Of a stretch of DNA of 64,000 nt, positions 12,941 to 64,000 are shown piece by piece (the first letter of the stretch is position 1; each line of letters starts with the position of its first letter). Both the position numbers and the translations under genes were made by a program. Source of the DNA: Vicinamibacterales bacterium (GTDB lineage: Bacteria; Acidobacteriota; Vicinamibacteria; Vicinamibacterales; SCN-69-37); assembly GCA_040902895.1 (NCBI GenBank), contig JBBDWL010000081.1:37660-101659 (forward strand), given 5' to 3'. The notes beneath the pieces are model-generated. The model was not told the origin of the DNA. It did no database searches and saw nothing but the letters and a program-made list of their open reading frames with translations.

Positions 12941-15676
12941 TTATTGTGCCACAGAACCAGGCTTGGGCCCGGAATAGGGCTGCAGCGCGATCACCGCATC
13001 TCTAACCTTTGCAGCGAGTTCCGCGTAATTGTTTCCCTCGAGCCGCATGGGCTTGCCGAACGTAATCCTGACCGGACCGCGCGTAGGCCAGCTGGCGCTC
13101 AGGTGCAGCACCGTATTGAGCCCTTCGATGCGCACGGGCACCACGGGCACGCCAAGCTTCGAGGCGATCAGGCCGATGCCAGGGCGGAACACATTGATCT
13201 CGCCGTGGTCGGTGCGCTTGCCCTCCGGAAAGATGAGCAGCGACCGCTTCTGATCGAACAGCCGTCCGATGTAGCGAACCGTCTGGCGCGCACCTGCCTC
13301 GTATTGAGGGATCGGAAAGGCGTTGTAAAAGATCGCGGCGCTCAGATAGGCGGTGGTGTTACGGATCCGCGCGGCGACAGGGAAGTCGTGGGGAAAGAAG
13401 TGCGCCTTGAACCACTCCTTCGCCATCGCCGGCGACACGCGGTAACGCCATTTCGCCGGCAGCGCTTGCAGCACGGCGGGCGTGTCCATGTGGCTCTGGT
13501 GATTCGGCGCAAAGATCACCGGATGGTCGAGTCCTTCGAGATTCTCCAGACCCTCCACCGCGAGCTTCATCCAGGGCCGCGAAATGCTGAGCACCCACGT
13601 CGGAAGGCTCGCACGCCGAATCGCGCGAATGGGCCACGAATAATTCCAGTCGGGGAAGGGGATGCCGGGAACAGGAACGCGGGGAACGTGTGGTTCCACT
13701 GGTTCCACTGGTTCCATTGGTTCCCCAGGTTCGGTTCTCCGTTCCGCGGGTTCACGTTCCACAGGTTCGCGTTCCACGAGCTTCGCGAGGTCGCCGACCG
13801 TCGTGGCGGCGGCGAATTCGCCTTCATCGATCGACACGTGGAGGGCTTCCTCGATGCGCGCGAGTAGTTGCACCCGATCGAGCGAGCCGAGGCCGAGCTC
13901 GTCGAAAGTCGTTTCGCGGGTCACCGCGCGTCCGGCCACCATGGCCGAGACGATTTCTTCAACCGTCTGGCCGGGCACCTGAGCGGGCGCGGTCGTCGCA
14001 CCGCCACCCTGGGCCCAGCGCTGAATCTCTTTGCGCCGCAGCTTCCTCGTGCCCTCGGTACGCGGCAGCGCGTCGCCCGTCCACAGGCTCCAGCTCCAGA
14101 TACGCTGGTGATCCTCGAGCTGCGCGTTTGCGTCCTTCACCACCGCACCCGGCGAGGCGCCCTTTTCCAGCAGCAGCACGGCGTGCACGCGCTCCTGGCG
14201 GCCCGCGCCGGTTTCAGGCGTGACGCCGACGACCGCCGACTCGACGACTCCCGGCTGCGCGTTCACCGCGCGCTCGACGTCGTCCGGAAACACGTTCAGG
14301 CCTTCGGCCGTGACGATCATCTCTTTCTTGCGGCCTTTGATCGTGAGACGCCCCTCGGCATCGAGGTCGCCGATGTCGCCCGTGTGGAACCATCCGCCGG
14401 CGAACGCCTCGCGCGTCTCGCGCTCGGCGTTGTAGTAGCCGGTGGTGACGTTTTCGCCGCGCACCAGGATCTCGCCGTCGTCCGCGATTTTGATCTCGAC
14501 GCCGCTGAGCGGCGTCCCGACCGTGCCGGCCCCCGGTTTTCGAAACGGATGATTCAGCGTCACAACCGGCGCCGTCTCGGTCAGGCCATAGCCCTGGATG
14601 ACGAGAAACCCGCGCTCGCGCCAGAACTCCTCGAGCTCGCGCTCGAGCGGCGCGCCGCCGACGACGATGCACCAGAACTTGAAGCCGAACAGGCGATGCA
14701 CGTCGCGATGAATCCACCACCGCCGCACCCAGTGCACAGGCTTACTCCCCTTACCTTCCTCACTCGACTCACTCGACTCACTCGACTTACTCGACTTACT
14801 CGACTTACTCACGTGCTCGCGCAGCACGTCGAGCACTTTCGGCACGCAGACCAGCACCGAGACGCGGCGCGTCTTGATCTGCCGCACGATCTCCTGCGGG
14901 TTGTAGCCGCGTGAGAAGACCACGGTGCCGTCCACCATCGGCGGCATGAACGTCGCCATCGACTGGCCGAACATGTGGCTGAGCGGCAGCAGATTGAGAA
15001 AGCGGAGCGGCGCCACCAGCGGCAGATACTTCCGGTACTTCTTGATCTCCTCTTCGATGGGATTGATGTTGGCGAGAATGTTCTTATCGGTAAGTGTGAC
15101 GCCCTTCGGCTCGGCCGTGGCGCCCGACGTGAAGATAATTTCGGCTAACTGTGGTTCCCCAGGTTCCAGTGGTTCCACACGTTCCCCGGGTTCGGTTCCC
15201 GGTTCTCGGTTCCCGTTCCACAAGTTCTCATCGTCCATGCGCCAGATCTGGAAGCCGTCGGCCGCCGGCGGCGTCACGTCGGCGCCCACGAGCAGCACCG
15301 GGGCCTGCACGATGTTACGGATGCGAAGCGCCTGCTCGGGCGAGGCGCGGAAGTCGACGGGGACCGAGACGAGCCCGGCGAGACGGATGCCCCACAGCGC
15401 CGCGATCCACTCGCCGCGGTTCTCACCCCAGATGACGATCTTGACGCCGGGCGCCAGGCCGGCGGCCTTCAGCCTCGCGGCAAACGCGCGCGACGCGTCC
15501 GCCAGCCGGCCGTAGGTCCACTGGCGGGTGCGAAAGCCGTCGTCATGCAGGATGAACGTCTGCTCGCGGCGCTTCGAGGCCGCGATGTAGTCGCGGAAGA
15601 AGGCGACGAGGGTCTCACGGCGCCTGGGTGGCGGGGTCAATCGCGTAGCGTTTTTCAAGGGCTTCTCGCAGCCCAT
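12941..15676 (-). CDS. Tri-domain acyl-activating enzyme: AMP-dependent synthetase / carrier-protein domain / PlsC-type acyltransferase
   Basis: AMP-binding motifs IIFTSGATAEPKGV, GYGLTET, GWFHTGDIG, GRKKEMI. Carrier-like FDELGLGSLDRVQLLARIEE. Acyltransferase motifs NHQSHMDT (HX4D) and FPEGKRT. Start set at ATG 15676 (MGCEKPLK...), because the longer ORF to 16093 overlaps the upstream peroxidase gene. Confidence 0.8.
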   Translation of the reverse strand: MGCEKPLKNATRLTPPPRRRETLVAFFRDYIAASKRREQTFILHDDGFRTRQWTYGRLADASRAFAARLKAAGLAPGVKIVIWGENRGEWIAALWGIRLAGLVSVPVDFRASPEQALRIRNIVQAPVLLVGADVTPPAADGFQIWRMDDENLWNGNREPGTEPGERVEPLEPGEPQLAEIIFTSGATAEPKGVTLTDKNILANINPIEEEIKKYRKYLPLVAPLRFLNLLPLSHMFGQSMATFMPPMVDGTVVFSRGYNPQEIVRQIKTRRVSVLVCVPKVLDVLREHVSKSSKSSKSSESSESSEEGKGSKPVHWVRRWWIHRDVHRLFGFKFWCIVVGGAPLERELEEFWRERGFLVIQGYGLTETAPVVTLNHPFRKPGAGTVGTPLSGVEIKIADDGEILVRGENVTTGYYNAERETREAFAGGWFHTGDIGDLDAEGRLTIKGRKKEMIVTAEGLNVFPDDVERAVNAQPGVVESAVVGVTPETGAGRQERVHAVLLLEKGASPGAVVKDANAQLEDHQRIWSWSLWTGDALPRTEGTRKLRRKEIQRWAQGGGATTAPAQVPGQTVEEIVSAMVAGRAVTRETTFDELGLGSLDRVQLLARIEEALHVSIDEGEFAAATTVGDLAKLVEREPVEREPAERRTEPGEPMEPVEPVEPHVPRVPVPGIPFPDWNYSWPIRAIRRASLPTWVLSISRPWMKLAVEGLENLEGLDHPVIFAPNHQSHMDTPAVLQALPAKWRYRVSPAMAKEWFKAHFFPHDFPVAARIRNTTAYLSAAIFYNAFPIPQYEAGARQTVRYIGRLFDQKRSLLIFPEGKRTDHGEINVFRPGIGLIASKLGVPVVPVRIEGLNTVLHLSASWPTRGPVRITFGKPMRLEGNNYAELAAKVRDAVIALQPYSGPKPGSVAQ
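13689..13770 (-). repeat. In-frame tandem repeat, GGTTCC family (period ~9), encodes E/P/V linker
   Basis: tgtggttccactggttccactggttccattggttccccaggttcgg...gcgttccacgag. Translated on the minus strand as EPVEREPAERRTEPGEPMEPVEPVEPH. Shares both ends with 15150-15224. Confidence 0.85.
14741..14812 (-). repeat. In-frame 9-bp tandem repeat, GAGTAAG family, encodes SKSSKSSKSSESSESSEEGKGSK
   Basis: The minus strand reads gtgagtaagtcgagtaagtcgagtaagtcgagtgagtcgagtgagtcgagtgaggaaggtaaggggagtaag, i.e. 8 units of 9 nt. Confidence 0.9.
15150..15224 (-). repeat. In-frame tandem repeat, GGTTCC family, second copy
   Basis: tgtggttccccaggttccagtggttccacacgttccccgggttcggttcccggttctcggttcccgttccacaag. Encodes NREPGTEPGERVEPLEPGEPQ immediately before the TSGATAEPKG P-loop. 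Confidence 0.85.
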
Positions 15677-56013: not shown

Positions 56014-56028
56014 AAGGACGGCCGGCGC

Positions 56029-56259
56029 ATGTTCCCGATGACAGCAGAAACATTGCCCTTCATCTGCCGCGAATGTAACGCGCGGTTCCAGCCGGCAGAG
56101 GGAGGGCTCTGTTCGCGGTGCAATCGCATCCTCTGCTGGCGGCACATCAGACTCGGCCGGAAAGAGCCGATTTGCGTTCGGTGCCGCGATCAATATCCTG
56201 AGGATCGAGCGCCGCTCGTCCGGGAGCTGTTCGACTGGCTGAGGCGCGTGTTCGGCTGA
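56029..56259 (+). CDS. Small double CxxC zinc-ribbon-like protein
   Basis: 76 aa with CRECN...CSRCN...CVRC. Confidence 0.45.
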   Translation: MFPMTAETLPFICRECNARFQPAEGGLCSRCNRILCWRHIRLGRKEPICVRCRDQYPEDRAPLVRELFDWLRRVFG

Positions 56260-56272
56260 GTGCATCCCTGAA

Positions 56273-57001
56273 ATGAAACTGTGCGCGGCGCAGACGAGGC
56301 CTGTCAGGGGTGACATCGGCGCGAACATCGCCGCCCACAAAGAGTTCATCGACGCCGCGGTTTCGAGCGGTGCAGACCTCATCGTGTTCCCGGAGCTGTC
56401 GCTGACCGGATACGAGCCAACGCTTGCCGGCGCGCTCGCGACGGACCCTGCCGACTCTCGCTTCGATCTGTTTCAAACGATCAGCAATGCTGGCGATATT
56501 ACGATTGGCGTCGGCATGCCGACCCGACACGCCGACGGCTGCTGCGTCACCATGCTTCTGTTCCAGCCTGGCAAGCCGAGGCTGGTTTATTCGAAGCGGT
56601 ATCTGCACGCCGACGAGGAGCCGTATTTCGTGAGCGGCCCCAATGTCGCCTGCGTGAACGTAAAAGACGCCATCGTTGCGCCCGCGATTTGCTATGAGGT
56701 GTCTGTCGCGGAGCACTCGGAGAATGCTTCCCGGCACGGCGCAGGGATTTATGTGGCCAGCGTGGCGAAAACGGCCGCGGGCATCGAGGTGACATTGCCA
56801 ACGCTTGCCGGCATCGCTCGCAAGCATGCGATGACGACGATGATGGCGAACTGCGTGGGTGAGTGCGACGGCTGTCAGTGCACGGGCAGGACGTCGATCT
56901 GGAATGACCGGGGCACGCTCATGGGCCAGCTCAGTGACAGGGACACTGGGCTTTTGATTTTCGATACGGCAAGCCAGGAACTGATCGAGAGACGCCTGTG
57001 A
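56273..57001 (+). CDS. Carbon-nitrogen hydrolase (nitrilase superfamily)
   Basis: Catalytic Glu in VFPELSLTGY, Lys in YSKRYLH, and Cys in APAICYE. Confidence 0.8.
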   Translation: MKLCAAQTRPVRGDIGANIAAHKEFIDAAVSSGADLIVFPELSLTGYEPTLAGALATDPADSRFDLFQTISNAGDITIGVGMPTRHADGCCVTMLLFQPGKPRLVYSKRYLHADEEPYFVSGPNVACVNVKDAIVAPAICYEVSVAEHSENASRHGAGIYVASVAKTAAGIEVTLPTLAGIARKHAMTTMMANCVGECDGCQCTGRTSIWNDRGTLMGQLSDRDTGLLIFDTASQELIERRL

Positions 57002-57534
57002 CCGAGCAGGACATTCTTCAGGCCTTGGATCGCGCCGTGCGCCGTTCGCTCGGCCGCGATGAGATTCAGAACGCCATTCGTGAGATGGGCCGTCGCCTGG
57101 CGAGCGACGCCGATCTCCGCATTGCGTGGCAGGCGCTCCCGCTCGGCATCTACGACGATCTGCCGGCCGGCGTGCGCTCCAGTTGGGTCTTCGCCCTGCG
57201 CGCGGGATTGACGACCGGCGCCGAGCGCCATCCGAACAGCCATCAGCGGGTGATGTCCGTCATCGGATCCGCCGACCTGCAAATCTGGGATGGCACACGC
57301 TGGCAGCCGCATCGCCTCACCAGCCGCGAAGATGGCGCGCTTGCGGACCGCTGGCTCTCCATTCCTCCACACACCTGGCACCGCCCGGTCATCGATCCTC
57401 TCGAAGACTGGTACGTCGTCTCATTTCATACGGCCGAAGCCGATGAACTGATCGAGGAGCGGGCGCGTGACGATGAGCATCCGGATGCCGGCGCGAGCCG
57501 CGCCGAGTTGTACGCTGGACGCCTGGCGCGCTGA
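56998..57534 (+). CDS. Hypothetical protein (possibly cupin-like)
   Basis: 178 aa. GTGA overlap with the nitrilase-family gene. HPNSHQRV...HTWHRP His-rich blocks. No firm family. Confidence 0.4.
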   Translation: MTEQDILQALDRAVRRSLGRDEIQNAIREMGRRLASDADLRIAWQALPLGIYDDLPAGVRSSWVFALRAGLTTGAERHPNSHQRVMSVIGSADLQIWDGTRWQPHRLTSREDGALADRWLSIPPHTWHRPVIDPLEDWYVVSFHTAEADELIEERARDDEHPDAGASRAELYAGRLAR

Positions 57535-57543
57535 CGGCGAAGG

Positions 57544-60441
57544 CTAGACAGGCTTCGAGGGAGGTTCGCCGTCAGACGTCCAGCGGCGCCGCTTGAGGAA
57601 GAGTCCTTTGCGCGAGATGCCGAGCAGTCGCGCGGCCTCTTCAATCTTGCCGTCAGCGCGGGCCATGGCGTGTTCGATCATCGCGCGCTCGAGGACTGCG
57701 ACCGCTTCGGGCAGCGGCTGATCGAGCTTCAGGGTTAGGTCGGCGGTTGCGGGAGTTTCGGTCTCGGCTTCGGGCTCCGGCGGCGGCGCGGCATCGGGAT
57801 CGACTTCAATGGTGCGCCGCGTCGCACGAATGGCCGGCGACAGATGATCGGGCGTGAGGGTCTCGTTGCTGCCTACCATTGCAACCATCCGCCGCAGCTC
57901 GTTCGACAGCTGCCGCACGTTGCCGGGCCACTTGTAGAGCAGCAGGTATTCCATCATCTCGTCGCTCAACTTGATTCCGTGTTTCTTCTCGTCCATCTCG
58001 AAGCGGCGAAGCAGGTGCATCACCAGCGGCGGAATCTCTTCGCGCCGTTCCGACAGCTGCGGCATCTGGAAGCGGACGATGTTGAGGCGATAGTAGAGGT
58101 CTTCGCGGAACTCTTTCAGCTGGATTAGATCTTCGAGGTCGGCGTTGGTTGCGGCAATGATGCGGACGTCGACTTTGATCGGACGCCCTTCGCCGAGCGG
58201 GTGCACTTCGTTCGTCTCGAGGAACCGCAGCAACTTTGGCTGGAGATCCATCGACAGCTCGCCGATCTCGTCGAGAAAGATCGTTCCGCCCTCGGCCGAT
58301 CGGATGATGCCCGGAAAATCGACATGCGCGCCGGTGAACGAGCCGCGCCGATAGCCAAACAACTGACTTTCGACCATATCGCGCGGCACGGCGCTGCAGT
58401 TGAACGGCAGAAACACCTGGTTCGCGCGCGGGCTCGCGCGGTGAATCGCTCTCGCGACGACTTCCTTGCCTGTGCCCGTAGCTCCCATCAGCAGCACCGG
58501 CAGGGTAGTGACGGCCACCTTCCGCGCCGTCTGCATCAGTTCGATCATCTGCGGCGAGGTGAACACCGCGTCCGGTTCTTCGACGATGATCTCGGGCTGC
58601 CAAAGTGAGCCGATGCGTTGCTGATCTTTCTGGTGTGCCTCGAGCGCCTTTGCGGCTTCGAGGAGGCGGCGGATGCCAGCGACGGCGAAGAGCGAACGGA
58701 GGTCCTGCTTGGGACGAAGAATCAACTCGATATTGCGATGTTCGACTTTGCCAATGTCAATTCTTTCGAGCGGTGAGTCCTTGAGCAGTGTTTCCGTCAA
58801 AGGTTTTGAAAGACTGGAAGCAATGACTCGTGTCCCAGAATCGCCGCGAGAAATCAGGTCGGCGCTGACAGAGATATCCAGAGCGATGCAAGCTGCGAGA
58901 GCTTCTCTACCTCGGAGTTCAGGGTCGGCCCTAGTTACGAGAATCCCGACAGCGTCATCGAATCCATCCAGAGGGTCCCTTCCTGCCTCAGAAACGACAG
59001 GCGCTTGCTCGTACCACGTCGGCCGCTCGTCTGCCATGAGCGCGATGAATTTAGATCCAGCACGCTTGCTTTGCTCCTCGAGTGAATGGGCAGCATCGAG
59101 AGGATCTTGACTCTCCGAGGATTCAAGTTCCCTAAGTACATCAGTCAGTGCAAGAGGGTTACCTCTCAAGAGAGCACAACTAAATGACCGAAGCAGCATT
59201 CGACGAGCACTGTTCTTGTGTCCTCGGACCCATAAGCTGCGCGCCATCATCCGGCTTAACTGGGCAAGATAGACCGGATGGGTGAGTGCGCGTCCTAGGC
59301 ACTCAGCCGTTTTTTGTTCTGCAGCGGGATAGCAGCGATCGTCGAATAGAGCTTCAGCCTCAGCTAGATTCGCCAATAAGGGGGAGTGCTGATCGTTCAA
59401 CGGTTGACCCGTAACCCGAATCAAATCCAGTACATTCTGAAACTGGTCTCGGTCGCCCGTTCTCTTGTGAATCTCCAACTCTGTGAAGAGAGTCAGGATT
59501 TCGTTAGGCCTTGCCCACTTTGGGTCTCGAGATCTAAAAAACGATCTGGCCTGCTGAAGATGGCTTGCGGCCGCTTTCAAATCGCCTTGGATGAGTGCGA
59601 GGGTGGCGAAGTTGTCAAGGAGACCCACTTCGACAATTCCCAAGGTTTGCGCCGCGCTCCAGGCCTTCCGTGCCCACGACTCTGCAATCGACAAGTCACC
59701 TGAGGAGAGCGCCGAGTAAGAAACAGTTGCAGCAGCGGCCATCACTAACTGCAGATGGCCCGCTTGTTGAGCAAGGCCTGCCGCTACCTCACCACTCTTT
59801 CGGGCCGCATGGAACGCCCCAGTCATAGCAAGGACGCAAGCGTGGTTGACGTGGTAAAGGGCAGCCAGAGAAGTGTGCGGGTACCGCTCCAACAGCGACT
59901 TGGCCAGTGACAAATGGTGCAGAGACTGCCCAAAGGCTCCCCGCTCGCCCTCAATTCGCGCCAATCGCACATGAAAGCCGGCTATGGCTGTACCGTCCGC
60001 AGAACGTACTGCTGCCTGATAAGCCTCTCGGACAGCTGAACCGAGGCCAGGCCCAAGGGTTTCACTCGCAGCTGTTAGCCAAACTTGTTGCAAGCTTGCC
60101 AGAATCGCAGCGTCCGCTGAGCGGGAGGCCGCTCTTATGCCCTTGCGGAGTGCCTCGGCTGCCTCCTCCCTGCGCACTTGGGTGATCCTGACTCGTCCAA
60201 TCACTTGCCAGTAGCGCGCCGCGTATTCTGCGGTCGCAGGCTTGCCAACTGCGACCTCTGCGAGCGCCGATGCCTTCTCTAGCTCTCCTTTGAATTGAAG
60301 GCACTCGCATACCAAGCAGTCGCGTTCATCGGACTCTTTCTTACTCTGAACAGTCGTGGCCTGAGCTAATCGCAGAGCGTCGGCAAAGCGACCATGACGA
60401 TATGCAACTTTGGCGAGGGTTAAAGAGCTGTCAGCCATCAT
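57544..60441 (-). CDS. Sigma-54-dependent transcriptional activator (bEBP) with ~590-aa helical-repeat/alpha-beta sensor N-terminus
   Basis: Walker A GATGTGKE, GSFTGA (GAFTGA variant), Walker B IFLDEIGE, RIIAATN, WPGNVRQL, and a Fis-type HTH AARLLGISRKGLFLKRRR. Confidence 0.85.
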   Translation of the reverse strand: MMADSSLTLAKVAYRHGRFADALRLAQATTVQSKKESDERDCLVCECLQFKGELEKASALAEVAVGKPATAEYAARYWQVIGRVRITQVRREEAAEALRKGIRAASRSADAAILASLQQVWLTAASETLGPGLGSAVREAYQAAVRSADGTAIAGFHVRLARIEGERGAFGQSLHHLSLAKSLLERYPHTSLAALYHVNHACVLAMTGAFHAARKSGEVAAGLAQQAGHLQLVMAAAATVSYSALSSGDLSIAESWARKAWSAAQTLGIVEVGLLDNFATLALIQGDLKAAASHLQQARSFFRSRDPKWARPNEILTLFTELEIHKRTGDRDQFQNVLDLIRVTGQPLNDQHSPLLANLAEAEALFDDRCYPAAEQKTAECLGRALTHPVYLAQLSRMMARSLWVRGHKNSARRMLLRSFSCALLRGNPLALTDVLRELESSESQDPLDAAHSLEEQSKRAGSKFIALMADERPTWYEQAPVVSEAGRDPLDGFDDAVGILVTRADPELRGREALAACIALDISVSADLISRGDSGTRVIASSLSKPLTETLLKDSPLERIDIGKVEHRNIELILRPKQDLRSLFAVAGIRRLLEAAKALEAHQKDQQRIGSLWQPEIIVEEPDAVFTSPQMIELMQTARKVAVTTLPVLLMGATGTGKEVVARAIHRASPRANQVFLPFNCSAVPRDMVESQLFGYRRGSFTGAHVDFPGIIRSAEGGTIFLDEIGELSMDLQPKLLRFLETNEVHPLGEGRPIKVDVRIIAATNADLEDLIQLKEFREDLYYRLNIVRFQMPQLSERREEIPPLVMHLLRRFEMDEKKHGIKLSDEMMEYLLLYKWPGNVRQLSNELRRMVAMVGSNETLTPDHLSPAIRATRRTIEVDPDAAPPPEPEAETETPATADLTLKLDQPLPEAVAVLERAMIEHAMARADGKIEEAARLLGISRKGLFLKRRRWTSDGEPPSKPV

Positions 60442-60479
60442 AGGCCTTACGTTCGCAGTAGTGAATTGACAGGGCGCGA

Positions 60480-60495
60480 AGCAAGTCGAGTGCCG
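60480..60495 (-). promoter_or_regulatory. Sigma-54 (-24/-12) promoter upstream of the sigma-54 activator gene
   Basis: The minus strand reads cGGCACtcgacTTGCTt, against the consensus TGGCAC-N5-TTGCW. About 28 nt of leader with AAGG before ATG 60441. Confidence 0.7.
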
Positions 60496-60533
60496 CTCCG
60501 AAGCATTGTCTGAATATTTGGATGATTCTGATA

Positions 60534-60548
60534 TTGCAGAAGCTGCAA
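60534..60548. promoter_or_regulatory. Perfect dyad TTGCAG-aag-CTGCAA, candidate activator binding site
   Basis: Read directly. Its centre is about 47 nt upstream of the -24 GG. Confidence 0.45.
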
Positions 60549-60555
60549 CCTCGCG

Positions 60556-62841
60556 CTAGTGAACCCTATTAACCTGATTTGTCCTGGGCGATAACCTTTG
60601 GCGACATGCGTAAAGCAAGTGCTCCAAATTTGTCCCGTCCTTCGGGGTGACCGCTACCGCCACGTTTGAGCCTGTCTCAAGAAGACCGGAGCCTAAAAGT
60701 GTGCTGCGGAGTCCCTCGGCAATCGTTTCTATAGAGTCGATTCCGGAGTGCCCTATTCCTATGAAGATATCGCTCCCGTGAACAATTTGCGTTAGCGCAT
60801 GATTTCCAAGATGCCTGCGTACCACTGCCAATGCGATTCCGACTGATTCACTTCCGGCACTTGTGCTGGGCGCGCAGCGGCATGCGATCATTCCCTGGGG
60901 GGTGAGGTCCAGACCATCCGACGTTGGCAGATGAACCGGTGATCCACCGCTCCTTGGCCTAAGACGCTCAAGAACAGGCGTGACGTGGCGGACTACCGCT
61001 TCCACGAGTCTTTGATCCTCTGTGCGGAAGCCCGCATCATCAGGAGAAAAGGCCGCAACTATCCCGAGTTGACCTGTCTCGGCTGAAACCGGGACAGTGA
61101 GGCAACTTTTGAGTGGTGTCGGGAAACTACGTGCCATCTCTCCGAACTCTCCGGTCGCATCGGCGTTGAGGACGGAGCGTCCTGACGAAGCGCTCCAGCC
61201 GACGATTCGTTCTCCCATCCTGACCTTGCGTCCCTTTAACCAATCAGTATGACTCCCGATCGCATTCGTGACTTCCAACTCGGTTCCATCTTCGATAGGG
61301 GAATAGAAAGCAACGACAGTCGCTGGAATTAGGTTGGATATCTCCTCAACGACATCATCCAAAGCTGCTGAATAGGATTGCTCCGCCGCCAGCCGCTGAA
61401 TTAGGCGATACATTGTTCTGGATTCACCTGCACTAGCGCTAATTGCTGCCAATTTTGGGAACGAGGTCTGCGGCTTGGCCAAGACCAGATTCTTGGATGA
61501 ATTCTCCAGCGGCTTTCCTGACTCTTCCTCGCGTTTCAAGCGCTGATATAGCCCGAAGAAAGCGTCAACTATCAAAGGATCGTACATGGTTCCGCGACGG
61601 TCTCTAAGAACGTGAAGGGCGTCCTCGTCAGTCAGCCTGGGCCTGTATGGTCGATCTGAAGTCAGGGCGTCGAAACAATCCACTACTGATAGAACTCGGG
61701 CACCAATCGGGATATCTGCGCCTCGTAATCCACCAGGGTACCCACTCCCGTCCCAACTCTCGTGGTGATGTCGGACGATGGGAACGACGGGATAAGGAAA
61801 GTCGATTGACGACAAAATGTCAGCGCCCACCGCGGCATGCTGTTTCATTCTTTCGAACTCTGCAGGAGTGAGCGGTCCTGGCTTGTTCAAAATATATTCA
61901 GGAACCGCCAGCTTGCCCATGTCATGCAGTAGGGACGCAGCGCCGATTGCTCTGATCTGCGAATCGTCGATAACTCCTATTTCACGAGCCAAAGCGACCG
62001 CATACGTTTGAACCCTTCTGATATGCCCATGCGTTATTTGGTCTTTGGCATCGATTGCCATTGCCAAAGTCTCAATCGTGGAGAGGTACAGACTGTTAAG
62101 TTGATCGACATGTTTGTTGGCATCTTCTATCCGTGCCATGGAGGACTTGTAAGTAACGTAGGAGATGGCCAGGAGCGGTAGCACAATCCAAATCGCCCGC
62201 AAAGCGCTCGCACCGTCTCTCCCGCCGAAGCTGACCAACAGGGACGCCATCGACGCGCCGCTGAAATAATTTAGCCAAAGCCAGGCGAAGTTCTTTTTCC
62301 AGACTTGAATGGCAGACACTTTCTGTTCAAGAGCGATGGCTGCGGCAATGAGGAAGGTGTTGGCCAAAAAGTACGTGGTTGCGAAGGCGCAGAGCGGCAC
62401 CAAGATCTGGGTGACCTGAAAGTCCACCGCATTTATCGGCGGCGCACCCACACCGTGATAAACCAAGGAACCCAGCCAGACGGAAAGGGCCGGTGTAGCG
62501 GCGTTGAAGATCACTCGGTAGGCAGGCTGGCGTCGTCTCTGCAGCCACAGAGAGATGACCAATCCATCCAAAGCCGCGAGCACGATCCCAGCGGCTGGCC
62601 CGAAGAGAATGAAAGCGGAAAATACAAACACTTCGGAGATCGAAAGCGTCGCTGTAACGGAGGGAATCTTGACAGTAATCGAACTCGTTAGAAGAGTCAG
62701 TCCAACGAGTACGAACCATCTTTCGTCAACGTCGTACGTGATGAGTTGGTAGATTGACGAAACCAACACACCACCGCCCACAGCCGCGACGGCAGTGACA
62801 TACCAACGGGCTGCGGGCGAGAGCGACGTGAATGGCGACAT
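60556..62841 (-). CDS. Multi-pass membrane HD-GYP phosphodiesterase with GAF and degenerate GGDEF-like C-terminus
   Basis: About 7 TM helices in aa 10-235. HD-GYP motifs LLHDMGK and HHESWDGSGYPGGL. GAF-like VVAFYSPIEDG...IVGWSA...LTVPV. Tail GSDIFIGIG...AVAVTP...LLYACRQR resembles GGDEF with the signature lost. Confidence 0.8.
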   Translation of the reverse strand: MSPFTSLSPAARWYVTAVAAVGGGVLVSSIYQLITYDVDERWFVLVGLTLLTSSITVKIPSVTATLSISEVFVFSAFILFGPAAGIVLAALDGLVISLWLQRRRQPAYRVIFNAATPALSVWLGSLVYHGVGAPPINAVDFQVTQILVPLCAFATTYFLANTFLIAAAIALEQKVSAIQVWKKNFAWLWLNYFSGASMASLLVSFGGRDGASALRAIWIVLPLLAISYVTYKSSMARIEDANKHVDQLNSLYLSTIETLAMAIDAKDQITHGHIRRVQTYAVALAREIGVIDDSQIRAIGAASLLHDMGKLAVPEYILNKPGPLTPAEFERMKQHAAVGADILSSIDFPYPVVPIVRHHHESWDGSGYPGGLRGADIPIGARVLSVVDCFDALTSDRPYRPRLTDEDALHVLRDRRGTMYDPLIVDAFFGLYQRLKREEESGKPLENSSKNLVLAKPQTSFPKLAAISASAGESRTMYRLIQRLAAEQSYSAALDDVVEEISNLIPATVVAFYSPIEDGTELEVTNAIGSHTDWLKGRKVRMGERIVGWSASSGRSVLNADATGEFGEMARSFPTPLKSCLTVPVSAETGQLGIVAAFSPDDAGFRTEDQRLVEAVVRHVTPVLERLRPRSGGSPVHLPTSDGLDLTPQGMIACRCAPSTSAGSESVGIALAVVRRHLGNHALTQIVHGSDIFIGIGHSGIDSIETIAEGLRSTLLGSGLLETGSNVAVAVTPKDGTNLEHLLYACRQRLSPRTNQVNRVH

Positions 62842-62945
62842 TCGAATTGGGAATGGAGACTACACCACCTCCCCTATCGCTGCGAACTCTAGCTACCCCA
62901 GACGATGACTTTGGACATGATCTCAAGCCTTTCGAAGTGTTAGGA

Positions 62946-64000
62946 CTAGTTGACTGTCGTGTTGCCCCAGACCAAGGCGTTACCCCAAACCAAGGCGTTT
63001 CCCGAAACCAGCGTGTTTCCCCAAACCAGTGCGTTACCCCAAACGAGTGCGTTACCCCAGACCAGCGCATTGCCCCAGACCAACGCATTCCCCCAAACCA
63101 ACGCGTTACCCCAAACCAGCGCGTTGCCCGAGACAACTTGGTTTCCCCATACTAGGGCGGTCCCTTGAAGCTCTTTCCCTGCAACCCCGAACGCAATCCC
63201 GCTCGCCACGACCGCAACGCCATCGATCGTCGCGGCCGGCAGCGCGACGCCCGGACCGTTCTTGGCGACAAACATCGCGAGCGGAAGATTGATTTCTCCG
63301 GCGCCCATTTCGATTAGGCCGGCGCCTTCGATCGGCGAGGCGGTGAGTTGCATCGCGAGCTTGACCTGCGCGGGCGTCAGCGACGGCGCGGCGTCGAACA
63401 GCAGCGCGACGGCGCCAGACACGACCGCCGCCGACATGCTCGTGCCACTCAGCTCGATTCGGCCGTTCGCGCCCTGACCGCCCGCGCGGCGCTCGGGATA
63501 GATCTGCCACAGCGTCGATCCGTCAGCGCCCGCCGCCACAATGCGATTGCCGGGCGCGAGCACGTCGGGCTTAATCAGGCCGTCGGGATAGGTCGGGCCG
63601 CGCGAGCTCCACGTCGCCACCACATCGTCGGCCAGCGCCGCGGTGCCGCGCGTGTTGGCGCCGCCCGCCGTCAGCGACGCCGCCGACAGGCCGGGCGAGA
63701 CGATGCCGCCGAGAATCATGCGGCCATCGCCGGTCTTGCCAAGATTGCCGGCGGAGGCGACCACGACGATGCCGGCGCGCACGGCGCGCTCGACCGCCTG
63801 ACATAGCGGATCGTCCGACGCGCTTTCCTGCGGCGCATGGCCCAGCGAAAGATTGATGACGCGCAGCTGATACTGCGCGCGATTGGCCACCGCCCAGTCG
63901 ATCGCCTCGATGACATCGGCGACCGTGCCCTGGCCGTTCTCGTCGAGCACGCGCAGGCTCACGAGATGCGCGCCCGGCGCCATGCCGCGAAGTCCTTTCG
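62946..64000 (-). CDS. S8 (subtilisin-family) peptidase, C-terminal part with (GNALVW)n tail; 5' end outside window
   Basis: Catalytic Ser block SGTSMSAAVVSGAVALL and oxyanion region VVVASAGN. The ORF runs off the right edge. Eleven hexapeptide repeats precede the stop at 62946. Confidence 0.8.
   Translation of the reverse strand, partial: KGLRGMAPGAHLVSLRVLDENGQGTVADVIEAIDWAVANRAQYQLRVINLSLGHAPQESASDDPLCQAVERAVRAGIVVVASAGNLGKTGDGRMILGGIVSPGLSAASLTAGGANTRGTAALADDVVATWSSRGPTYPDGLIKPDVLAPGNRIVAAGADGSTLWQIYPERRAGGQGANGRIELSGTSMSAAVVSGAVALLFDAAPSLTPAQVKLAMQLTASPIEGAGLIEMGAGEINLPLAMFVAKNGPGVALPAATIDGVAVVASGIAFGVAGKELQGTALVWGNQVVSGNALVWGNALVWGNALVWGNALVWGNALVWGNALVWGNTLVSGNALVWGNALVWGNTTVN
62961..63158 (-). 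repeat. 18-bp tandem repeat x11 inside the S8 peptidase 3' end
   Basis: Units gttgccccagaccaaggc, gttaccccaaaccaaggc, gtttcccgaaaccagcgt ... gtttccccatactagggc, read directly. In frame, encoding GNALVW-type hexapeptides. Confidence 0.9.

Follow-up and report, generated by a model that had tools for sequence, protein, structure and literature searches.

A conserved low-GC tract with an edge inside a sigma-54 activator gene in a signalling locus of Vicinamibacterales-like Acidobacteriota

A 64,000-nt stretch of DNA from a Vicinamibacterales bacterium (GenBank contig JBBDWL010000081.1, positions 37,660 to 101,659; hereafter the window) contains, at 58.7-63.2 kb, a tract with a GC (guanine plus cytosine) content of about 0.54, compared with 0.66 elsewhere in the window. 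The tract lies within a signalling locus of Vicinamibacterales-like Acidobacteriota, which consists of an S8 peptidase gene, a mini-ORF (ORF, open reading frame), a gene for an HD-GYP protein, a palindrome with a predicted sigma-54 promoter, and the gene for a sigma-54 activator with a TPR-type sensor. The spacer carrying the mini-ORF, the HD-GYP gene and the sensor half of the activator gene form a cassette, to which part of the S8 tail also belongs in the window. The history of this cassette is, as judged from sequence comparison, decoupled from that of its flanks. We propose that the tract is an old and long-lived allelic sensor cassette, exchanged as a block within a conserved signalling locus and low in GC because it escapes the GC enrichment linked with recombination, a reading to which we give about half of our belief. 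A polymorphic cassette at a fixed locus is a known arrangement; what is new is the deeply conserved and unusually clean step in GC3 (GC at third codon positions) within one gene. The components of the locus in the window are as follows.

63171..64000, minus strand: S8 (subtilase) peptidase, catalytic part, truncated where the window stops (Pfam Peptidase_S8, E = 1e-33; GC3 0.83)
62946..63170, minus strand: C-terminal hexapeptide-repeat tail of the S8 peptidase, about 11 units of GNALVW, from the translation (GC3 0.68)
62889..62918, minus strand: mini-ORF MSKVIVWGS of 9 codons (ATG TCC AAA GTC ATC GTC TGG GGT AGC TAG)
60556..62841, minus strand: MASE9-HD-GYP-GAF protein of 761 aa, centre of the trough (GC3 0.57; effective number of codons, Nc, 59)
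60534..60548, no strand assigned: palindrome TTGCAG-N3-CTGCAA, just past the HD-GYP stop codon
60480..60495, minus strand: sigma-54-type -24/-12 promoter-like element CGGCAC-N5-TTGCT, with one mismatch to TGGCAC-N5-TTGCW
57,544-60,441, minus strand: ORF of the activator, 965 aa
58714..60441, minus strand: codons 1-576 of the activator, its N-terminal sensor half, on the left side of the trough (GC3 0.54; Nc 58)
57544..58713, minus strand: C-terminal half of the activator, codons ~577-965, with AAA+ domain, lid and Fis-type helix-turn-helix (HTH) (GC3 0.79; Nc 38)

Composition and edges of the tract

In 300-nt windows the GC content was 0.49-0.61 within 58,700-63,200 and 0.60-0.73 outside, and the lowest 1-kb windows of the whole 64 kb were the four at 59,001-63,000 (GC 0.535-0.558), all other full windows being at least 0.608. 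Relative to a background of 26 genes of the window (GC3 0.826 ± 0.035), GC3 was 0.572 for the HD-GYP gene (z = -7.2) and 0.541 for codons 1-575 of the activator (z = -8.1). Activator codons 577-965 (0.787) and the S8 body (0.833) match the background. With an Nc of 58-59, compared with 38.5 for the background, codon usage in the trough is nearly unbiased. Four-fold degenerate sites were composed of A.22, C.29, G.25 and T.25 in the trough, against A.07, C.43, G.44 and T.07 in the background, and the tetranucleotide distance showed its maximum at 58-62 kb. The profiles of GC, GC3, Nc and tetranucleotides thus all deviate over the low-GC segment that a sequence-only reading had marked at 58.7-63.2 kb. 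That reading had named the GC3 profile as the place to look for steps, and a GC3 step is present at the tract edges.

By maximum likelihood (ML), the change-point of GC3 within the activator gene is codon 576 (window ~58,714; likelihood ratio 63.7); the Pfam Sigma54_activat domain (residues 627-790) begins about 50 codons further on. The activator, HD-GYP and S8 peptidase genes are all on the minus strand, and thus the low-GC half of the activator is its N-terminal sensor region. Both the location of the left edge at the junction of sensor and AAA+ module and the assignment of the low GC to the sensor had been claimed from the letters of the sequence, and both were borne out. Conservation of the activator protein also rises from ~0.5 to ~0.85 at residue ~576, the identity between orthologues being 44-55% in the sensor half and 76-96% in the AAA+ half. 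On the right side, GC3 declines along S8 codons ~226-300 (window 63,084-63,308), going from 0.80-0.90 down to 0.66-0.72, and the S8 tail carries an 18-nt tandem array at 62,961-63,134. In relatives the GC3 of the tail is usually as high as that of the S8 gene body (0.75 vs 0.80), so that part of the drop in total GC over the tail comes from the amino-acid composition of the repeat (G-N-x-L-V-W). The trough of GC3 starts family-wide at the S8 stop codon. The right edge, which had been placed near the S8 repeat tail, is therefore found there for total GC, but the family-wide GC3 step is at the S8 stop.

The spacers within the trough have a GC content of 0.50-0.51, against 0.64 for pooled intergenic DNA elsewhere, and the S8/HD-GYP spacer has a mean GC of 0.49 across 52 loci. 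The low-GC effect is regional and goes beyond codons. As the sequence-only reading had stated, neither a tRNA gene around the tract nor a flanking direct repeat was found, and no integrase, transposase or other mobility gene was detected in partial family scans, which left some nearby ORFs uncovered. The neighbouring ORFs scanned included a CN-hydrolase-like protein and one without family match, and the DinB-family gene was identified through its similarity to relatives. At 56014-57543 the window carries a 1.5-kb insertion relative to four relatives (L001, L005, L007 and L010), in which the DinB-family gene abuts the 3' end of the activator gene. The plus-strand ORFs of this insertion, 56273-57001 (CN-hydrolase/nitrilase-like) and 56998-57534 (without family match), have a GC3 of 0.76-0.77, near the background.

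Conservation in relatives and history of the cassette

Relatives of the locus, numbered L001-L093, come from dozens of independent assemblies (ENA, JGI, Logan and NCBI). A scan with the HD-GYP alignment gave 80 loci of the wider family (41-52% identical), while a metagenome scan with the sensor-domain alignment gave no match and a genome scan two loci only. The closest database relatives of the window proteins were 64% identical for the activator and 78% for the HD-GYP protein, and exact matching turned up no contig for the activator of the window or for the protein P0004. Full-length orthologues of the activator (n = 10) are 957-996 aa long and 56-64% identical, and their contigs include one metagenome-assembled genome of Vicinamibacterales and one of Acidobacteriota; for the HD-GYP protein there are about 58 orthologues at 64-78% identity, followed by a family of ~800-aa proteins at 41-52%. 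The gene order in relatives is S8 (with hexapeptide tail), HD-GYP, activator, DinB-family gene, DapB-like gene and more genes.

The two-part composition was found together with this gene order. In L001-L007, L009 and L010, GC3 was 0.57-0.67 for the HD-GYP gene, 0.53-0.66 for the sensor half, 0.79-0.89 for the AAA+ half and 0.80-0.94 for the flanks, and the GC3 change-points of the orthologous activators fell at codons 551-653 in nine out of ten. For the wider family, the GC3 of 79 HD-GYP genes was 0.597 ± 0.058, and 21 full activators showed 0.60 ± 0.05 for the sensor and 0.854 ± 0.074 for the AAA+ half, with a step of more than 0.15 in 19 of them. The trough of L012 lies in a background of GC3 0.90-0.95, and low-GC flanks were detected in none of the 93 loci checked for flank composition. 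The in-frame fusion to resident sequence that the sequence-only reading described is not new, as is evident from these full-length orthologues, from synteny conserved on both sides and from the two-part composition in relatives. Likewise, the cassette is not absent or replaced by unrelated DNA in relatives, since the same genes occupy the same site in L001-L007, L009, L010, L012 and dozens more.

Variation of the pattern was observed at some loci. In L007 (2651-5539) the activator is low in GC3 (0.59) through codon ~820 and not in the sensor half alone, and no other orthologue of the set has so divergent an AAA+ domain (71-79% identity); the low-GC extent is consistent with a different endpoint of exchange. 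L034 (9685-11352) has a sensor-like ORF without AAA+ domain, 24% identical to the sensor half of the activator and with GC3 0.56, and L083 (1-1134) has a divergently oriented sensor-like ORF with GC3 0.53. As to whether low GC3 is tied to an adjacent full activator, L023 (GC3 0.80) fits such a tie, while L034 keeps its trough with the sensor-only ORF. L083 and L076 sit within backgrounds of lower GC3.

At L043 (10788-15139), the canonical low-GC3 pair has downstream of it, within the same locus, another S8-like gene in tandem, split into two ORFs, and then a gene for a 687-aa HD-type protein whose GC3 is normal (0.82). Many of the L014-L093 contigs are just 3-5 kb long and start 27-560 nt before the HD-GYP gene, at or near 18-nt tandem repeats; it seems that the array interrupts assembly and leaves the cassette of atypical composition on a contig of its own. 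Short contigs ending at the start of the AAA+ region were looked for and not seen, the upstream ends being clustered at the tandem repeats and the downstream ends scattered.

Between lineages, the identity at four-fold sites in the trough is 0.21-0.34, compared with 0.25-0.31 expected by permutation. Since synonymous sites are thus saturated, the low GC is a maintained state rather than the un-ameliorated signature of a donor. The GC3 of the trough stays within 0.51-0.70 and shows a weak positive correlation with the local background (r = 0.38-0.55). In the AAA+ half, four-fold identity is 0.49-0.73 against 0.45-0.56 expected from a within-family permutation. Clearly unsaturated synonymous sites in the flanks were also sought, but this excess is small, and divergence among the lineages is deep throughout.

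The sensor and AAA+ halves of the activator do not follow the same relationships. Among 12 orthologues, the identities of the two halves correlate poorly (r = 0.41), and in the pair L002 and P5 the AAA+ half is 96% identical while the sensor half is 58% identical. In three distance quartets, both flanks and the AAA+ half group the window with L005 (support 0.79-1.0), whereas the trough gives this grouping a support of 0.00-0.01 in two quartets and 0.32 in the remaining one. ML quartets (Poisson+F+Gamma4 model) with resampling of estimated log-likelihoods (RELL) gave the flank topology 1.000 in the flanks, and 0.018 and 0.008 in the trough. Informative sites switch topology at activator residue ~561. 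A long-branch artefact was considered as the source of the discordance: ML quartets and informative-site counts agree with the distance quartets, and the DinB-family gene, more divergent than the HD-GYP gene, retains the flank signal by 16:1:1. The sequence-only reading had named, as grounds for giving up its cassette, relatives with the same two-part composition and congruent trees for both halves: the shared composition is what we found, but the trees of the halves are not congruent. Its description of the cassette as acquired or recombined thus holds for a recombined block with junctions inside ORFs and not for a recent acquisition.

The decoupling is directly visible in two relatives from different samples, L019 and L054, which are 99.75% identical over 4,339 nt, through the end of the S8 catalytic domain, and then diverge abruptly inside the S8 ORF at a point equivalent to ~63,300 in the window. 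Beyond it, the tails (DILVWGN vs SVVWTN) and the mini-ORFs (MTIIAWGN vs MRIIVWTE) are of different type, and between the HD-GYP genes identity is 60% at the protein and 68% at the DNA level. In these relatives, near-identical strains can carry very different cassettes.

Origin and maintenance of the low GC content

The mechanism that we favour would operate as follows. Divergent cassette alleles would persist by moving solely as blocks, with crossovers in the conserved flanking DNA, that is, in the coding sequences of the AAA+ module and of the S8 catalytic domain. The interior of the cassette would then seldom form heteroduplex with a homologue and, because it rarely pairs, would avoid the recombination-associated force that drives GC3 to 0.8-0.95 elsewhere. 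This force could be GC-biased gene conversion or selection for GC aided by recombination. The interior would sit near mutational equilibrium at a GC3 of ~0.55-0.65. A published comparison found GC3 to be elevated in recombining relative to non-recombining core genes in 11 of 14 species, with genomic GC above what is expected from mutation (PMC4450053). As the two activator halves are transcribed in one mRNA and expressed at one level, the force that differs between them should act on segments of DNA. GC3 was also compared with protein conservation, but it is flat along the HD-GYP gene irrespective of conservation: the HD core, conserved at 90-99%, has a GC3 of 0.55-0.67, while the equally conserved AAA+ region has ~0.8. 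Selection for translational accuracy is thereby excluded.

Several observations weigh against the proposed escape from GC enrichment. The step involving GC-biased gene conversion is one that we infer, and for its prediction that more homogenised tail arrays go with higher GC3 the trend was weak and not significant (Spearman 0.26, p = 0.095). The HD-GYP protein, at 64-78% identity, is no more divergent between lineages than the products of high-GC3 genes in the flanks, the DinB-family gene (45-64%) and the 290-aa gene (55-66%), and hence the suppression of recombination must be postulated within populations. The sensor half and the HD-GYP gene favour different partners in the quartet and site analyses; these mosaic signals mean that the trough recombines between lineages at least occasionally. 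In the L019/L054 pair, a chimeric assembly of one of the two metagenome contigs is possible, and their breakpoint lies ~420 nt upstream of their GC3 drop, so that the edges of cassette and trough are not identical on the S8 side.

Among other explanations, the atypical composition at all levels, the edges within ORFs and the phylogeny discordant with the flanks would suit a recent horizontal acquisition, in which a cassette from a lower-GC donor was fused in frame to a high-GC host and has not yet been ameliorated. We consider this very improbable, since full-length orthologues, gene order and two-part composition recur in nearly every relative, and GC3 is held at 0.51-0.70 in spite of synonymous saturation between lineages. 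The amino-acid composition fits a high-GC genome (Ala 13%, Lys 2.9%), the closest database relatives stand at the 64% (activator) and 78% (HD-GYP) given above, and the tract has neither tRNA nor flanking repeats, with no mobility gene in the partial scans. That the contig is a chimera of two organisms made during assembly or binning can be set aside as next to impossible: the window comes from an assembled contig of apparently about 120 kb, and conservation of the AAA+ coding sequence is high enough for an assembler to be misled, but the same arrangement and composition occur in dozens of independent assemblies and the reading frames run unbroken across both edges. A repeated homologous import of cassettes, by each lineage, from an unsampled lower-GC donor clade with the same locus would account for the discordant phylogeny and the replacement in blocks, and L007, low in GC through an AAA+ domain that is the most divergent of the set, resembles a whole gene of donor type. 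Low-GC flanks were, however, seen in 0 of the 93 loci, and the GC3 of the trough is narrow, with its weak correlation to the background, where a spread from amelioration would be expected. As the cassettes are mutually saturated, the hidden clade would have to be just as diverse and to have donated cassettes recently, many times and independently; we judge this origin improbable.

Two further explanations place the low GC under selection. Non-optimal codons may be selected because they throttle or condition the translation of the HD-GYP protein and the activator, possible reasons being a low copy number, a dependence on rare tRNAs or co-translational folding. Rare codons are indeed strongly enriched: of the Arg codons, 34% are AGA or AGG, compared with 6% in the background, while the share of TTA is 6% against 0% and that of ATA 17% against 2%. 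Low GC3 follows the coding sequences even when these are rearranged, as in L034 (0.56) and L083 (0.53). Such selection is nevertheless unlikely in our estimation, as the step lies within a single ORF whose two halves share the same expression, so that expression-linked selection cannot distinguish them. The rare codons show no position-specific conservation, four-fold sites being at chance identity; the composition is just flat (Nc 58-59), and the non-coding spacers of the trough are low in GC too. To hold ~1,300 codons against a force toward GC3 0.8-0.95 would, moreover, require implausibly strong selection per site. AT-richness could alternatively be selected at the level of DNA, for a nucleoid-associated silencer or for DNA mechanics, keeping the region silent until the sigma-54 system fires. 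Xenogeneic silencers with a preference for AT-rich DNA, such as Lsr2 and MvaT, are present in other high-GC bacteria, the effect is regional and includes the spacers, and conserved regulatory elements lie inside the tract. Against this, the present analysis identified no silencer and found no sequence motif or periodicity in the tract, and four-fold sites are flat rather than AT-rich, a GC content of 54% being only a moderate enrichment in AT. The discordant phylogeny would also be left unexplained, and we hold a silencing role to be rather improbable.

Signalling components and comparison with known systems

The activator shows the Pfam domains Sigma54_activat (627-790), AAA_lid_14 (798-876) and HTH_8 (915-954), the family matches being PF00158 (E = 3e-63), PF25601 and PF02954, and its translation includes a Walker A motif (GATGTGKE), a Walker B motif and a GSFTGA loop. 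With a GAFTGA-type loop, an AAA+ domain and an HTH, the predicted protein has the defining features of a sigma-54 enhancer-binding protein. No NCBIfam equivalog reached its cut-off for the activator, and no Pfam match was obtained in its first ~600 residues. The AlphaFold2 model of the sensor half (predicted local distance difference test, pLDDT, 87.5; predicted template modelling score, pTM, 0.82) contains a TPR-type superhelix at ~6-441 and a small alpha/beta domain at ~507-599; its matches in PDB were generic TPR superhelices such as OGT, APC/C and MalT domain III. The window has no second gene for a sigma-54 activator or an HD-GYP protein that could serve as an internal comparison.

The sigma-54-type element lies ~40 nt 5' of the activator ATG, and the same position is kept in 6 of 8 orthologous spacers. 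The palindrome TTGCAG-N3-CTGCAA occurs as a single exact copy in the window, and its core GCAG-TTT-CTGCAA is kept in 7 of 8 orthologous spacers; it may represent an enhancer or operator of the downstream sigma-54 promoter. From this predicted promoter the activator probably autoregulates its own gene. Scans for sigma-70 promoters and terminators gave matches at chance level only.

A more distant TPR sigma-54 activator, P0012 (894 aa), was observed at L008 (629-3313), with a change-point at codon 274 where GC3 goes from 0.62 to 0.85; the contig has just 628 nt upstream of P0012. At L012 (12398-15073) the public call is a 439-aa, AAA+-only protein (13754-15073), while an intact ORF of 891 aa runs from 12398; apparently the low-GC3 sensor half was missed as coding by the gene caller.

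The HD-GYP protein shows the Pfam domains MASE9 (71-195), HD_5 (258-422), HD and GAF (488-625), with PF13487 at E = 1e-39, and its C-terminal region is poorly conserved. Having the HD and HHExxDGxGYP motifs (LLHDMGK and HHESWDGSGYP in the translation), it is a putative phosphodiesterase of cyclic di-GMP (c-di-GMP). Together, the HD-GYP protein and the activator may couple a signal from the membrane or from a ligand with the turnover of c-di-GMP and with sigma-54-dependent transcription.

The S8 tails of the family (L001-L093) are arrays of 5-14 hexapeptides with a lineage-specific unit of the form x-x-[VIL]-[VIL]-W-[GTS], including GNALVW, TLVWGN, NVVWGN, QIVWGS, SVVWTN, TIVWSD, SIIWGS, DILVWGN and others. 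A Pfam hint of a beta-solenoid (YdcK repeat) in the tail is weak and below the cut-off. The mini-ORF encodes a single unit of the S8 tail repeat. It is located 47 nt 5' of the HD-GYP ATG, is preceded by the Shine-Dalgarno-like motif AAAGG, and is kept at the nucleotide level in all 7 of 7 orthologous spacers amid saturated surrounding DNA. Across L001-L007 and many of L014-L093 its distance to the HD-GYP start is 14-57 nt, and ORFs of the form M-x(1-4)-[VIL][VIL]xW-x-stop were found in 55 of the 73 family loci having a repeat tail. Like the tail unit, the mini-ORF peptide varies between lineages, and mini-ORFs of WT type (MRIIVWTE) were paired only with WT-type tails (8/8; possibly one clade). 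No Rfam family was detected in 56-64 kb at E <= 1, and no conserved RNA structure was found in the S8/HD-GYP spacer.

An undescribed, peptide-based and strain-specific (pherotype) signalling system of Acidobacteriota, coupling kin-specific peptide sensing to c-di-GMP turnover and sigma-54 transcription, is a speculative interpretation of the locus to which we attach a low probability. Hexapeptides would be released from the S8 tail with its 6-14 units, the separate mini-ORF supplying one further copy, and their receptor would be MASE9, the membrane domain of the HD-GYP enzyme, or the TPR superhelix of the activator, or both. Sensing by the TPR might follow uptake by a transporter of Opp/Dpp type such as that of L001, L010 and L012. 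If such a system exists, diversifying selection on the specificity of signal and receptor would explain why divergent alleles are long-lived, why they are exchanged as blocks, why the edges lie within genes and, indirectly, why the cassette escapes GC enrichment. The Opp/Dpp-type ABC importer itself, with an SBP_bac_5 binding protein and two BPD_transp_1 permeases, is divergently oriented just upstream of the S8 gene in L001 (1840-5443), L010 (4189-7755) and L012 (4286-7954); the equivalent region of the window is past its end.

A low-GC tract with edges inside ORFs is usually annotated as a horizontally acquired island, which would be wrong here. Its atypical codon usage misleads gene callers, as for the L012 activator, and its composition could in principle affect binning. 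The contrast between GC3 0.54 and 0.79 within one reading frame, maintained family-wide against backgrounds as high as GC3 0.95, amounts to a rare natural experiment, in which the two halves do not differ in expression level, strand, replication context or organism. The locus thereby makes it testable whether high bacterial GC results from selection or from recombination-linked biased gene conversion. It also points to a widespread, uncharacterised module of S8 peptidase, mini-ORF, HD-GYP protein and TPR sigma-54 activator in soil Acidobacteriota, with signs of allelic diversification.

With a classical genomic island, as described with amelioration in the model of Lawrence and Ochman, the tract shares atypical GC, GC3, codon usage and tetranucleotides. 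The tRNA and flanking repeats of such islands were not found in the window, nor were integrase or transposase genes in the partial scans, and, unlike an island, the tract is at the same site in relatives and un-ameliorated despite saturated synonymous divergence. O-antigen and capsule clusters are low-GC variable loci at fixed sites with conserved flanks, replaced as blocks by crossovers in these flanks. The cassette can be likened to them in its fixed position, conserved flanks, replacement of alleles in blocks and persistently lower GC. In contrast to these biosynthetic sets, its alleles are two signalling genes of constant domain architecture, with edges within ORFs.

The activator resembles enhancer-binding proteins of NtrC/NifA type in its AAA+ domain, lid and Fis-type HTH and in the nearby sigma-54-type promoter with an upstream palindrome; its sensor, however, is a superhelix of ~440 TPR residues with a small alpha/beta domain, not a receiver, GAF, PAS or V4R domain. 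The TPR fold is common to the activator and to peptide receptors of the RRNPP type, but no RRNPP protein was among the top 50 PDB matches, the output in the window is an AAA+ sigma-54 module, and the mini-ORF of 9 residues is too short for a signal sequence. Known phosphodiesterases of MASE9-HD-GYP-GAF(-GGDEF) architecture have the same order of MASE9, HD-GYP and GAF as the window protein, in which GGDEF is undetectable, while members of the wider family show a weak GGDEF match. The publication on this architecture (Galperin and Chou, bioRxiv 10.1101/2021.11.05.467447) makes no mention of a linkage to a TPR sigma-54 activator, S8 peptidase or mini-ORF, or of a compositional trough.

Pherotype cassettes such as comQ-comX-5' comP and agrB-agrD-5' agrC are divergent signalling blocks between similar strains, as in the family of the window. 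One of their edges lies inside the receptor gene, separating variable sensor from conserved output, as codon 576 does in the activator, and the history of the block is decoupled from that of the flanks, as here. The region agrB-agrD-5' agrC of Staphylococcus aureus is one such cassette. The closest known parallel appears to be the comQ, comX and 5' comP region of Bacillus subtilis, a polymorphic cassette ending inside the receptor gene (PMC6334282). Divergent alleles between near-identical flanks, as in these systems, were found in the relatives L019 and L054 only. The locus of the window differs from pherotype systems in that its receptor would be a TPR-sensor sigma-54 AAA+ activator together with an HD-GYP enzyme, not a histidine kinase, that its hosts are Gram-negative Acidobacteriota, and that its signal molecule is hypothetical. 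Its salient feature is the flat codon usage kept family-wide across deep divergence.

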